A stretch of DNA of 64,000 nt from an uncultured bacterium (GTDB lineage Bacteria; Patescibacteriota; Minisyncoccia; Phycocordibacterales; DATDWN01). Under the pieces are notes generated by a model that searched no databases, was not told the DNA's origin, and saw nothing but the letters and a program-made list of their open reading frames with translations. A program made the position numbers and the translations under genes. The stretch covers positions 36,688-100,687 of the forward strand of contig CAVSGX010000007.1 of NCBI GenBank assembly GCA_963727715.1, read 5' to 3'. This document shows positions 47,261 to 62,659 of the stretch, piece after piece; position 1 is the stretch's first letter, and each line of letters begins with the position of its first letter.

Positions 47261-47749
47261 TTGACAACCCCAACAACAAGAGTAGACTTATGCCGGAGGT
47301 TCGAAACAATGCTACATCAATTTTACGCAGTTACATTGACTTCCATATATCTTGTGGGGGATAAAAAGGAAAATAGTCCTTACCCTTTCGCCCAAAAAAT
47401 CGCCCTAAAAGGAGAAAGTGGGATACCGGTTGGGAATGAACTAGAAAATGGCACAATGATTGCCATCGCCAAACAACTTCAGGCTTATATCCCCGAAGGA
47501 GGAGGTTTGACCTCTTTCGAGAGAAGACTTGAAATGGTTAATACAAGATATTGGGGGGGCCATTCATCCTACATAGTTGCTCTTTTCAAGACAGAAAAAG
47601 AAGCCGAGGAATGTCTTGGACAAGATAATCTCCAACCGTGTGATAATCGTTGGGTTGAGAAGACAAAAGAAATAATCGAAGAAATTGGAGAAAATCATCC
47701 GGCGTTTGAAGTTTGCAGATGGCATGATCTTGCTCTTTTAGAATCTTAA
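47261..47749 (+). CDS. Hypothetical protein
   Basis: ORF only. Confidence 0.35.
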   Translation: MTTPTTRVDLCRRFETMLHQFYAVTLTSIYLVGDKKENSPYPFAQKIALKGESGIPVGNELENGTMIAIAKQLQAYIPEGGGLTSFERRLEMVNTRYWGGHSSYIVALFKTEKEAEECLGQDNLQPCDNRWVEKTKEIIEEIGENHPAFEVCRWHDLALLES

Positions 47750-51677: not shown

Positions 51678-52487
51678 TTAAAAACCGAAAAGATGAGCAA
51701 AGAATTGACCAATACCGCCGAAGAAACTTTTATGCGGTGTGGTTGTCGAGCCTGTAGCTGGCTTGCTCTGATCAATAACAGTTGAGGCTGTTACAGAATT
51801 ACCGCTCACTGCGCCTTGTACCACCACTTGGTCGCCAACTTTCAAACCGGAGATGGTTATTGTTGTTGATCCTTGCAAGAATTTGGAATTTGTCACATCA
51901 ATGGTATATGTTACATTGCTTTTGTTCGTGATAGTTAATGTGTTGCCGGAAATGACTGTGATTGCCCCACCAATAACCGGCTGGCCATTCCCCGCAACCA
52001 AGTTCGCTACCCCACCACTGGCATTGCCAGAGTTTTGCGAACCTCCACTCTTATCTACACCAAAACCGCGTCCCATTACTCCATCATGAATGCTTGTGGC
52101 CGTGACATTTGTGCCACTTACCGTGCCCTGCACCGCGACACTATCTCCGATAGCAATAGCCGACACTGTGCTTGCGACACTGGCTTTAGTCACAGTGGCA
52201 TTTGTGGCGTCAACTGTGTATATCACAGTCGTGCTCGTCGGGGGTGTTCCTGTTATTGTTGATTTGACAAATTGTTTGCCCGTCACAGTCAAAATATCAC
52301 CATTTATGGCCGACACCGTGCCGACCACAGCTGGTCGTACCATCCCAGTTCCTCCATGCATACCCCCCCTAGGGCCCCAACCGGGCGATGCTCCTGTGGC
52401 TGTTTGGGCAAATGCCTGGCTGGCAAAACCAAGTCCAGTCATTGCAAATACCATTAAAACTCCTAAAATATATTTTTTCATATTCAT
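51678..52487 (-). CDS. Secreted repeat protein (DUF5666-like beta repeats)
   Basis: Signal peptide. Repeated GTVS..NG..LT.T blocks. Paralogous to 34347-34760. Confidence 0.45.
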   Translation of the reverse strand: MNMKKYILGVLMVFAMTGLGFASQAFAQTATGASPGWGPRGGMHGGTGMVRPAVVGTVSAINGDILTVTGKQFVKSTITGTPPTSTTVIYTVDATNATVTKASVASTVSAIAIGDSVAVQGTVSGTNVTATSIHDGVMGRGFGVDKSGGSQNSGNASGGVANLVAGNGQPVIGGAITVISGNTLTITNKSNVTYTIDVTNSKFLQGSTTITISGLKVGDQVVVQGAVSGNSVTASTVIDQSKPATGSTTTPHKSFFGGIGQFFAHLFGF

Positions 52488-59972: not shown

Positions 59973-61025
59973 CTACAAAAATCTCTTTATAAAAGTTTTT
60001 GTCTTTCTGGCACGACAATGAGATATTGTCCCCAAATATGAAGTCAAAACACTTTTCAGGTTTTCTTCTGATACTAAGCCTTTTTCAAACTGTTTTCTTA
60101 TTATTTTTATTTTCCTGACAATTCTCCTTTTTGTCCGTGTCCGCAAAACAACCATATGTGACAAAATAACATAACCCAAAAAATCAATTCCTCGTTGTAT
60201 TGGCCGAATTTCAACTTTTTTCGGGTGAAGATCCAATAATAAATTTTCGTGCAAAAAATTCCCGATTTTTTTCATAATTTCAAAAAGAAAATCTCTGTTT
60301 TTATGAATAATAATAAAATCGTCGCAATATCTGAAATAATATTTCAATTTCAGTTGGTGTTTTACAAACTGATCCAGCTTATCTAGATAAATATTTGCAA
60401 ACAGCTGGCTGGTCACATTGCCGAGTGGCAAACCCTTATCTTTTTCTTTCTCAAAACTTTTGAAAAGCATACTAACAAGCCACATTGTTTCTTGACATTG
60501 CACCTTTTTCTCAATTAAATTTCGTAAAATAGAATGATCAATGCAATCAAAAAATTTCCTGACATCGCATTTTAAAACATATGTTTTGATTTTCCAATTT
60601 TTGCTGACTTTGCGACAAGCTTTGTATGTTCTCTTTACACCAAGATGTGTCCCGCGCAATTTTCGAGATGAATACGAATCATAAATAAAATGTTTGTTAA
60701 AAATCGGATACAAAATCTGAAAAACTGCTTGATGGATAACTCTGTCGCGCACGGATGCTTTATGTATGTGCCGTCGTTTCGGGTCGGATATGTAAAAATC
60801 GACGTATTTGTCGTGCCGATATTTTTTTGAAATCAAATCTTCGTGCAATTGAAAAATATTTTCTTCCAAATGTAGTTCAAATTCACCAACACCTTTTTTA
60901 TTTTTCTTTCCTCTTTTAAATTCGTTCCAGGCTTTGAGCAAATTTGATATACTTGAAATATTATGAAACAGATTTTCAATAATGTGTCCCCCCCCCGCGC
61001 GCGGTAACAGTGATATTTCCATCAT
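59973..61025 (-). CDS. Diversity-generating retroelement (DGR) reverse transcriptase
   Basis: RT motifs 1-7 with catalytic YCDD (FRYCDDFII). Motif 4 reads LGNVTSQ, i.e. LGxxxSQ, the DGR-specific variant of QGxxxSP. By recollection, the N-terminal half aligns closely with Bordetella phage Brt (NLLKAWNEFKRGKK..., DRVIHQAVFQILYPIFNKHFIYDSYSSRKLRGTHLGV). No maturase or endonuclease domain. Confidence 0.9.
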   Translation of the reverse strand: MMEISLLPRAGGGHIIENLFHNISSISNLLKAWNEFKRGKKNKKGVGEFELHLEENIFQLHEDLISKKYRHDKYVDFYISDPKRRHIHKASVRDRVIHQAVFQILYPIFNKHFIYDSYSSRKLRGTHLGVKRTYKACRKVSKNWKIKTYVLKCDVRKFFDCIDHSILRNLIEKKVQCQETMWLVSMLFKSFEKEKDKGLPLGNVTSQLFANIYLDKLDQFVKHQLKLKYYFRYCDDFIIIHKNRDFLFEIMKKIGNFLHENLLLDLHPKKVEIRPIQRGIDFLGYVILSHMVVLRTRTKRRIVRKIKIIRKQFEKGLVSEENLKSVLTSYLGTISHCRARKTKTFIKRFL

Positions 61026-61371
61026 TCATAATATAAAACAAGTATACATTGTTATTTATCAGACTGGCAAAAAACTTTCCAAATCCGACAAACTCGGTAT
61101 CCACACCCACTGCGAACAAATCACACGAGACATATTGCAAAAATTTATCACAGCCAAATTTTCTCCAACGAATAAAAAGTTGGAAGTGTTGGAAGGTGCG
61201 CGTATATTACTTGAAGTCTTGAAACACTTTATTCGGACAGAATATGAATTGAAAATTATTGACGAAAAAACATATATCAAAATTGGGATGCTCGTGGTTG
61301 AGAATTCAAAAATGACAAATGGTTGGATAAAATATATTCAAAATCCACACCCACAAAAAACTCCGGCCTAA
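60982..61371 (+). CDS. Avd-like four-helix-bundle protein (DGR accessory variability determinant homolog)
   Basis: 129 aa. Matches the four-helix-bundle / 23S-rRNA-IVS-protein family pattern (KLSKSDKLGIHTHCEQITRDILQ...LEGARILLEVL...EYELKIIDEKTYIKIGMLVVENSKMTNGWIKY). Divergent from the RT and overlaps its first ~15 codons. Confidence 0.7.
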   Translation: MCPPPARGNSDISIIHNIKQVYIVIYQTGKKLSKSDKLGIHTHCEQITRDILQKFITAKFSPTNKKLEVLEGARILLEVLKHFIRTEYELKIIDEKTYIKIGMLVVENSKMTNGWIKYIQNPHPQKTPA

Positions 61372-61397
61372 ACCGGAATATTTTGAAAAACTTCTGA

Positions 61398-61510
61398 ACG
61401 AAGACCATTCGTCGGGTTGGAGTTGTCCAGACTGTACCGGTTCACCTTCACCTTACCAGTGTTCGGATTGAAGTACACGTTCGGGATGTCGCCGTCGGAA
61501 TTGCGAGAAC
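61398..61510 (-). repeat. DGR template repeat (TR)
   Basis: 113-bp near-identical copy of the target gene's 3' end. Relative to the VR, it has A (minus strand) at every one of ~11 mismatched positions. Confidence 0.85.
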
Positions 61511-61787: not shown

Positions 61788-61825
61788 TAGAAGAGAAAAA
61801 GTAAAAAGGTTAAAGGGAAACTGCT

Positions 61826-62554
61826 TCACGAAGACCATTCGTCGGGATGGAGTAGTCCAGACTGTACCGGTTCACCTTCACCTCGACCAGCGCACGGATA
61901 GAAGTACACGAACGGGATGTCGCCGTCGGAATAGCGAGAACCGGCACAGAACGTGATACCCTTTTCATCGAGATGTTTTCCTGTCTCGACAAAATACTTG
62001 AGCCCAAGCACCATTCTTTCGAGCAAAGTCATGCCGACCTTGCCAGTCGGGTCGGCCTGACGGGTAGATTGACCGAGATACTTCTCGTCCGGTTCCACAC
62101 CGTCGCGAACCCAGATAGCGTAGCTCGTGGCCGAGGTCCGAGTGTTGACTGTCACACTCGCGTCCAAGTCCTCGACGTATGTCCAGACCTTGAACTTGGC
62201 CCGCATAACTGCGAGTGTTTGGTTCATTGTGAGCCCCGCCCAAATGAAAACGAGACGCCACGAACCCTCAGTTGGCTTTCCCGGGATCCTCACCGTCGAG
62301 AAGTCGGCATAGATCTTGAAGAGGTCAAGATAGAACTTCTCCCACTCGGCACGAGTATCGGCGAATTCGTCGATTGCGATTTCGAACACTTCCTGTAATT
62401 TGCGTCGCAGAACAGTGTCCTTGTGCGTGAGCAGGTTCTGTACCTGCTCGAACGAAAGTTTCGCCAACACGCCGGCGACGAAGCTGGCGAGAGCGAGAAG
62501 CATCTCCACTGTTGGCCTCTTGGCCATGGAGGTTTGTCCTGTCTTATGTGACAT
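61826..62554 (-). CDS. DGR target (variable) protein; C-terminal ~38 aa encoded by the variable repeat
   Basis: GC-rich ORF. Start reassigned to MSHKTGQT, preceded by the SD aagagga and a TTGACA-N17-TATAAT promoter. The C-terminus ...CAGSRYSDGDIPFVYFYPCAGRGEGEPVQSGLLHPDEWSS is encoded by the VR. TR codons AAT/AAC correspond to TAT/TTC/TGC/TAC/ATC in the VR. Confidence 0.8.
   Translation of the reverse strand: MSHKTGQTSMAKRPTVEMLLALASFVAGVLAKLSFEQVQNLLTHKDTVLRRKLQEVFEIAIDEFADTRAEWEKFYLDLFKIYADFSTVRIPGKPTEGSWRLVFIWAGLTMNQTLAVMRAKFKVWTYVEDLDASVTVNTRTSATSYAIWVRDGVEPDEKYLGQSTRQADPTGKVGMTLLERMVLGLKYFVETGKHLDEKGITFCAGSRYSDGDIPFVYFYPCAGRGEGEPVQSGLLHPDEWSS
61828..61941 (-). repeat. DGR variable repeat (VR) at the 3' end of the target gene
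   Basis: Aligned to the TR by eye: ~11 substitutions, all at TR adenines, plus a 1-nt indel. The shared 3' end cccgacgaatggtcttcg is IMH-like. Confidence 0.85.
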
Positions 62555-62659
62555 TTTGTTCCTCTTTTTTTGTTTGTATGCCGACCATCTCTGATTCAGG
62601 TCAGCAGATTGTGAAGAAACGAAAAATGACGCTATCAAACGCCATTTGAAATCTGGCTA

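Follow-up and report, generated by a model that had tools for sequence, protein, structure and literature searches.

A poly(G)/poly(C) tract in the antisense overlap of avd and the reverse transcriptase gene: a candidate phase-variable switch of a Patescibacteria diversity-generating retroelement

The retroelement and its repeat tract

In this study, we examined a 64,000-nucleotide stretch of DNA from an uncultured bacterium of the Patescibacteriota (contig CAVSGX010000007.1, positions 36,688 to 100,687; hereafter the window, numbered from its first letter) and relate a short repeat tract within it to the two divergent genes that share it, the reverse transcriptase (RT) gene and the accessory gene avd of a diversity-generating retroelement (DGR). 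The 5′ coding ends of these genes overlap in antisense, and the letters of the overlap (60982-61025) are ATGTGTCCCCCCCCCGCGCGCGGTAACAGTGATATTTCCATCAT. Direct reading confirmed a C9(GC)3G tract at 60988-61004, with C9 at 60988-60996 and GCGCGCGG at 60997-61004, as given by an earlier reading of the sequence alone (the sequence-only reading), which had proposed it as a possible phase-variable switch. The parts of the element, taken from the list of open reading frames (ORFs), from the comparison of the template repeat (TR) with the variable repeat (VR), and from direct reading of the tract, are as follows.

59973-61025, minus strand: DGR RT, 350 amino acids, starting M-M-E-I-S-L-L-P-R-A-G-G-G-H (MMEISLLPRAGGGH...)
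60982-61371, plus strand: avd, bAvd-like accessory protein, 129 amino acids, starting M-C-P-P-P-A-R-G
60982-61025, both strands: antisense overlap of the avd and RT 5′ coding ends, 44 nt, holding the tract
60988-60996, poly(C) on the plus strand and poly(G) on the RT strand: the conserved repeat, taken here to be hypermutable
60997-61004, no strand: GCGCGCGG extension, lineage-specific and outside the conserved element
61388-61510, minus strand: TR
61818-61941, minus strand: VR, at the 3′ end of the target gene
61826-62638, minus strand: DGR target ORF, 270 amino acids, with the VR as its C-terminus

Judged from these parts, the element around the tract is a genuine DGR. Its order on the minus strand is target with VR, TR, inverted avd and RT; 15 of the 19 TR/VR mismatches fall at TR adenines (A to N), and the VR lies within the last ~40 codons of the target ORF, whose product had no Pfam match. 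The RT matches RVT_1 (E = 3e-24) and carries the motif PLGNVTSQ, the conservation of which among homologs, together with the cassette context, places it in the DGR lineage. These homologs number 6,811 at E < 1e-20; the few with organism names are Patescibacteria, and the minority that are named at all carry generic names (reverse transcriptase, retron-type RT, RNA-directed DNA polymerase), none of them as DGR. The match of avd to bAvd (PF22296) is weak, at 28.7 bits below the curated cut-off of 40, and its homolog in an 81%-related locus (L161) has PF22296 on record.

Among the matches listed, we collected 160 related loci, 152 of them usable, which represent relatives at 45-60% rather than the closest ones. 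A hidden Markov model (HMM) built from the window avd found an inverted avd directly upstream of the RT gene in 147 of the 152. The sequence-only reading had considered the divergent arrangement of avd and RT atypical for DGRs; it is instead the norm of the candidate phyla radiation (CPR), since 90% of CPR DGRs have architecture B3, TR-(avd)-RT (Wu et al. 2018, PMC5758913), which these relatives share. The window element is a member of this group, with which it has the target and VR, TR, inverted avd, RT and A-specific TR/VR mismatches in common. The accessible published accounts of CPR B3 DGRs make no mention of a repeat tract or of overlapping starts at the avd/RT junction. With the DGR of Bordetella phage BPP-1 (avd-TR-brt) the window element has RT, Avd, TR/VR and adenine mutagenesis in common; unlike it, the phage element is co-linear on one strand, without start overlap and without a repeat tract.

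The C9 run encodes Pro-Pro-Pro in avd (codons 3-5) and Gly-Gly-Gly in the RT (codons 11-13), and the translations of the two ORFs (MCPPPARG; MMEISLLPRAGGGH) agree with the CPPPARG and PRAGGGH that the sequence-only reading had assigned to the tract. Taking a G/C run of 7-8 or more as the slippage threshold for a contingency locus, the window thus has such a repeat in the 5′ coding region of both genes. The tract is the sole C or G run of at least 8, and the sole all-G/C stretch of at least 14, in the window. The window has a GC content of 41.9% rather than the ~38% first supposed (33% in the RT and avd segment), a C9 is expected by chance 0.16 times per window, and 14 of 100 dinucleotide shuffles hold one. 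A single C9 is therefore only mildly unusual in itself, and its significance comes from the comparative evidence. Apart from it, the window has just two G/C runs of 7: G7 at 47553, inside a plus-strand ORF (47261-47749), and C7 at 52363, inside a minus-strand ORF (51678-52487).

Conservation of the repeat

A run of at least six G within 160 nt upstream of the RT core was found in 79 of the 152 loci, with lengths of G9 (28 loci), G10 (26), G8 (8), G11 (8), G7 (5), G12 (2), G13 (1) and G6 (1). As background, 803 kb elsewhere in the same loci hold 10 G/C runs of at least 7. Five further loci (L043, L060, L062, L065, L135) have (CT)n or (GT)n at the avd/RT junction. On a neighbour-joining RT tree, the tract is the mark of a single clade of ~76 leaves, whose members are as little as 40% identical to one another (median 53%); no tract occurs in the sister clade on this tree, which also lacks the GGG and PPP motifs. 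Since the run occupies the same internal position between conserved flanks in 79 loci from many studies, we ruled out a sequencing artefact.

What is conserved is the C run, and the (GC)3G part of the unit first described is lineage-specific. Positions 60995-61004 (CCGCGCGCGG) form a perfect 10-bp palindrome; the palindrome, or its (GC)3 part, was seen only in the window's own strain, including contig L165, and was found neither in the closest relatives (L161-L164) nor in any other related locus. We therefore discarded the (GC)3 palindrome, as Z-DNA or as a hairpin, as a functional element.

At the protein level, Gly-Gly-Gly stands at the same N-terminal position in nearly all RT homologs. In front of it is either of two types of leader, which represent two reading frames of one DNA sequence. 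In the RT bodies of the tract clade, GGG makes up only 18% of Gly codons, so that the pure run is no accident of codon usage.

Start codons and reading frames

In the window, no ATG, GTG or TTG lies between the tract and the conserved core of either gene. Among 74 tract loci, no canonical start separates tract and core in 65 on the avd side, where an ATG occurs in none of the 74, and in 49 on the RT side; the avd core begins 6-25 nt past the tract in most loci and 31-57 nt past it in a few (e.g. L012, L017, L018, L085). Because canonical starts are so scarce here, both genes must start beyond the tract, inside the other gene, and since the two start codons flank the tract on opposite sides, each gene must be translated through it. 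Starts downstream of the tract, which would have spoken against a switch according to the sequence-only reading, are accordingly not what this ORF analysis indicates.

Of the 74 tract loci at their assembled length, 39 have an in-frame upstream start for the RT and 29 have one for avd, and these counts do not exceed those obtained with simulated lengths of +/-1. By a uniform criterion, both genes have in-frame ATGs (ON/ON) in 15 of 73 tract loci versus 60 of 67 repeat-free loci (Fisher p = 2e-17). Inside the tract clade, four loci have tracts decayed by substitution (L010, L016, L091, L051), and all four are ON/ON from the same ATGs, which identifies those ATGs as the true starts. A frame-robust design, with starts in all three frames, was rejected as a general rule, as the mean number of ON frames out of three, counting any start codon, is 1.7 for the RT and 1.4 for avd, about that expected by chance.

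The in-frame phases of the RT and avd coincide in 41 of 42 informative loci, where ~14 would be expected. This phase-lock arises because the ATG of either gene, read on the opposite strand, is typically a His codon in frame with the other gene. The His of avd is specific to the clade (54 of 73 tract loci versus 7 of 67 repeat-free loci).

Predicted states of the window tract

To relate tract length to frame in the window itself, we simulated the length of the C run in silico. Two further start codons enter at this point.

60963-60965, plus strand: alternative avd ATG, in frame at 2 mod 3, antisense of RT His-21 (350-amino-acid ORF); in the simulation, MKQIFNNVSPPARGNSDIS...
61027-61029, minus strand: alternative RT ATG, of ancestral type, with the leader MNDGNIT..., in frame at 2 mod 3, antisense of avd His-16

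At lengths of 0 mod 3 (C6, C9, C12), avd reads from the ATG at 60982 and the RT from the ATG at 61025, with a second in-frame RT ATG at 61022 also used, and both genes are predicted ON. At 2 mod 3 (C8, C11, C14), avd reads from 60963 and the RT from 61029, and both are again predicted ON; at 1 mod 3 (C7, C10, C13), neither gene has an in-frame start and both are predicted OFF. The alternative RT start lies in an ORF at 60976-61140 that ends ...MNDGNITVTARGGGTHY*, and its leader is of a type common in the homologs. The pair 60963/61029 is the ancestral, codon-aligned pair, with a 66-nt overlap. From this three-state pattern, a +1 slip would silence both genes and a -1 slip would swap their leader peptides. 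The expectation that any slip frameshifts both genes at once was thus borne out for C10, which is predicted to turn both OFF, and by the coinciding phases of the relatives; it failed for C8, which would keep both ON through the alternative ATGs. Together with the contrast to repeat-free loci, the simulation predicts that a change in length alters the frame and with it the ON or OFF state.

OFF-phase loci

Loci in which both genes are out of frame are nevertheless intact. In 36 of 36 OFF/OFF cases the RT body is complete (median length from N28 to the stop, 323 codons). A-biased TR/VR pairs are present in 26 of 28 OFF/OFF loci versus 10 of 11 ON/ON loci, and the numbers of A mismatches are similar in both groups. 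These OFF-phase loci are therefore not pseudogenes and are not decaying, as is characteristic of contingency genes.

Length polymorphism

The sequence-only reading had suggested looking for length variants in related genomes, and we found them; all of our comparisons are between consensus assemblies. Exact-protein look-up of the window RT and of P0001 gave no match. In the 90% cluster of the window RT, the second member (P0121) has GGGG in place of GGG, and it led us to contig L165 (run ERR11594402), which aligns to the window over 3,665 nt with 0 mismatches and a single gap, G12 (C12 on the plus strand) versus G9. In a lineage that a related cluster suggests to be of Nomurabacteria type, the tract is G11, G12 or G13 in ten contigs that come from different samples and have identical flanks; eight of the ten are G11, having been chosen because they encode the same protein. 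A Zambryskibacteria lineage, 99.4-99.9% identical over 3.4 kb, has G10, G3TG6 (10 nt) or G11A (12 nt), and only the 12-nt state brings both ATGs in frame. Length polymorphism thus exists between identical or near-identical sequences.

The same is apparent across protein clusters. Members of multi-member RT clusters at 90% identity differ in their leader at the repeat in six of the seven clusters examined, and in five of these the leaders are frame-shifted. Within one such cluster the copy number of a (GA)n repeat differs (P0142 versus P0143, with ERERE versus ERERERERE leaders). In the closest relatives of the window (81-83% RT identity) the run is G10, and the total length modulo 3 is preserved.

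Two of the Zambryskibacteria tracts are interrupted by a single base (G3TG6 in L180, G11A in L179). Going by the frames of L010, L016, L091 and L051, such interruptions would lock the phase.

A proposed switch of mutagenic retrohoming

Taken together, the conservation of the tract, its geometry, the frame statistics, the intact OFF loci and the length polymorphism between assemblies lead us to consider it likely that RT and Avd are gated jointly by slipped-strand phase variation, acting on the 5′ coding tract that they share, and that mutagenic retrohoming is gated with them. In such a switch, the tract would be a simple-sequence contingency repeat that forms part of a Patescibacteria DGR with TR-(avd)-RT architecture. 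Slipped-strand mispairing at replication would add or remove G:C pairs, an outcome that is seen in the assemblies; slippage as its cause, its reversibility, and its effect on expression and on DGR activity are what we infer. Typically, one length class would put both RT and avd in frame and the others would put both out, as simulated, the window with its two ON classes departing from this. In the cells of a population, production of the RT-Avd complex would then go on and off at random and reversibly, and with it mutagenic retrohoming of the target gene. The proposal of a phase-variable switch thus gains support from clade-wide conservation, frame states and length variants. With somewhat less assurance, we extend it to the clade, and regard it as fairly probable that a large group of Patescibacteria DGRs carries a bidirectional translational switch that toggles targeted hypermutation, with most elements OFF in nature.

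Several points weigh against this interpretation. The phase-lock follows from the geometry of ATG and antisense His; we had considered it as independent proof of selected co-switching, and have downgraded it to what it shows, a coherent design. Low-coverage miscalling of homopolymers could account for part of the +/-1 differences between assemblies, and the polymorphism is known at the level of consensus assemblies, as distinct from reads within one population or reversible change. Consensus lengths can also be stable, as indicated by G10 in all of L161-163 (three samples) and in all of L176-178 (three samples). Moreover, slippage during transcription or frameshifting by ribosomes on the run could make the OFF state incomplete. 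Finally, no Shine-Dalgarno sequence was evident by eye upstream of the ATGs, so that the assignment of start sites rests on ORF logic and comparison.

Alternative explanations

Each of the rival explanations that we weighed explains less of the data than phase variation does. The first, which we judge unlikely, is that the run is a tolerated mutational hotspot with no regulatory role, retained because Gly-Gly-Gly and Pro-Pro-Pro are needed at the N-termini, and that out-of-frame loci reflect assembly noise or decay. It would account for the near-universal GGG tripeptide in the N-termini of homologs and for decayed-tract loci that retain Gly codons, such as L010 (GGA GGT GGC). A protein-level need is hard to reconcile with lengths that differ within a lineage by non-multiples of three, with the sister clade that does without both motifs, with dinucleotide repeats at the same site in other relatives, and with the use of pure GGG codons at such a low share of all Gly codons. 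Noise or decay, in turn, would not leave RT bodies and TR/VR pairs intact when ~80% of tract loci are not ON/ON.

Expression might also be freed from tract length by RNA polymerase slippage or ribosomal frameshifting, giving a constitutive low level with no ON/OFF switch, a possibility to which we give little credence. In its favor, most assembled loci are out of frame and yet evidently maintained, and long A/T runs are an established setting for homopolymer-dependent transcriptional slippage. Compared with A/T runs, however, G/C runs of 8-13 are generally inefficient sites of slippage, and the substitution of the run by dinucleotide repeats in relatives would be left unexplained. Such slippage is not exclusive of phase variation at the DNA level and could coexist with it.

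Signals for transcription near the tract bear on the last alternative, in which the tract is part of a non-coding leader or spacer. Two were identified, each by consensus match only.

61041-61070, minus strand: promoter-like TTGCCA-18-TATACT, inside the avd antisense, just upstream of the RT ATGs
61360-61379, both strands: terminator-like hairpin, T-runs on each strand, located between TR and avd 3′ end

The promoter-like site would possibly give a near-leaderless RT mRNA. The hairpin points to separate transcription of TR RNA and RT mRNA and, as it separates the TR from the tract region, to a tract that is probably outside the TR RNA. In many relatives, GTATAA(T) stands at the position of the RT promoter-like site, where it coincides with conserved Leu-Tyr codons of avd.

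Least probable of the three, in our view, is that both genes use non-canonical downstream starts and that the run serves as a promoter-spacing, Shine-Dalgarno-like, or RNA or DNA structure element (palindrome, Z-DNA, DGR RNA): the lack of any Shine-Dalgarno sequence evident by eye, the promoter-like hexamers nearby and the palindromic CCGCGCGCGG would suit it, but the palindrome is lineage-specific, the decayed-tract loci are in frame from the ATGs across the former tract, the avd core follows so closely in most loci with no ATG between, the RT promoter-like site is wholly upstream of the tract, and the hairpin probably keeps the tract out of the TR RNA.

Relation to known systems

Phase variation through the tract would have close precedents in the poly-G/C contingency genes of Campylobacter jejuni, Neisseria and Haemophilus. 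As in the window, a G/C run of ~8-13 lies near the start of an ORF in these genes, and as in our tract loci, length polymorphism shifts the frame while the genes stay intact in the OFF phase. In contrast to these genes, the window has a single tract shared by two divergent genes within their antisense overlap and predicted to gate both at once. What it would gate is a mutagenic retroelement of an uncultured Patescibacterium, whereas the known examples concern surface structures. Co-regulation of two divergent genes by a single repeat, as proposed here, is known from hifA/hifB of Haemophilus influenzae, in which a (TA)n repeat lies between the genes. There the switch is transcriptional, set in overlapping divergent promoters through the spacing of -10 and -35, whereas the window tract is intragenic and would act through the reading frame: it sits inside both ORFs and not between -35 and -10 hexamers, and the only strong RT promoter-like site from a consensus-only scan (61070-61041) lies upstream and does not span it. 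Phasevarions, based on mod methyltransferase genes, offer a further parallel, since a repeat toggles an enzyme that creates population-wide heterogeneity, and two stochastic layers are thus stacked as we propose here. Their effect is epigenetic and one gene is gated; in the window, two genes would be gated and the effect would be targeted sequence hypermutation.

Full-text literature searches, which did not cover the CPR DGR paper of Paul et al. 2017 and one 2026 preprint, returned no report linking DGRs to repeat-mediated phase variation. If our interpretation is correct, the repeat gate would provide simple, heritable and reversible ON/OFF control that spreads risk across the population, with the target protein diversified in a minority of cells and a working allele retained in the others. 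The design, in which one homopolymer in an antisense overlap co-switches two divergent genes, would be unusual, and would amount to a "mutator of the mutator".

A Patescibacteria-specific DGR clade (clade 2) is known, and its DGRs show lower-than-average activity (Roux et al. 2021, PMC8144416), which fits with many elements being OFF. In another study (Wu et al. 2018, PMC5758913), premature stops or truncations led to the exclusion of over half of the candidate DGRs. A repeat gate, with most elements OFF, would account for two observations at once, the reduced apparent activity of CPR DGRs and the large number of annotated RT genes that appear truncated. Pipelines that discard truncated or frameshifted RTs would systematically lose OFF-phase elements and mis-call the starts of RT and avd. 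The proposal also offers a testable predictor: in uncultured bacteria, VR diversity should be predictable from the tract phase seen in metagenomic reads.

Further observations

Some observations concern other parts of these loci. Among the Zambryskibacteria RTs of cluster 2 (P0122 with 25 contigs, P0125 with 10 contigs, P0124, P0129 and P0131), many contigs yield products of 246-256 amino acids. The N-termini of these short RTs diverge at about residue 95 (MGYLSILYPVF... versus ...AIFRILYPVF...), which would fit a second site of recurrent frameshifting within the RT body. In L002, the match to the avd HMM begins at profile position 53, suggesting a frameshift or stop within avd in that metagenome-assembled genome. 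In L161, the DGR is flanked by prfA-like and ABC/FtsX genes, a neighbourhood that differs from that of the window, and a small HicA-toxin-like ORF (584-814) lies upstream of the DGR target.

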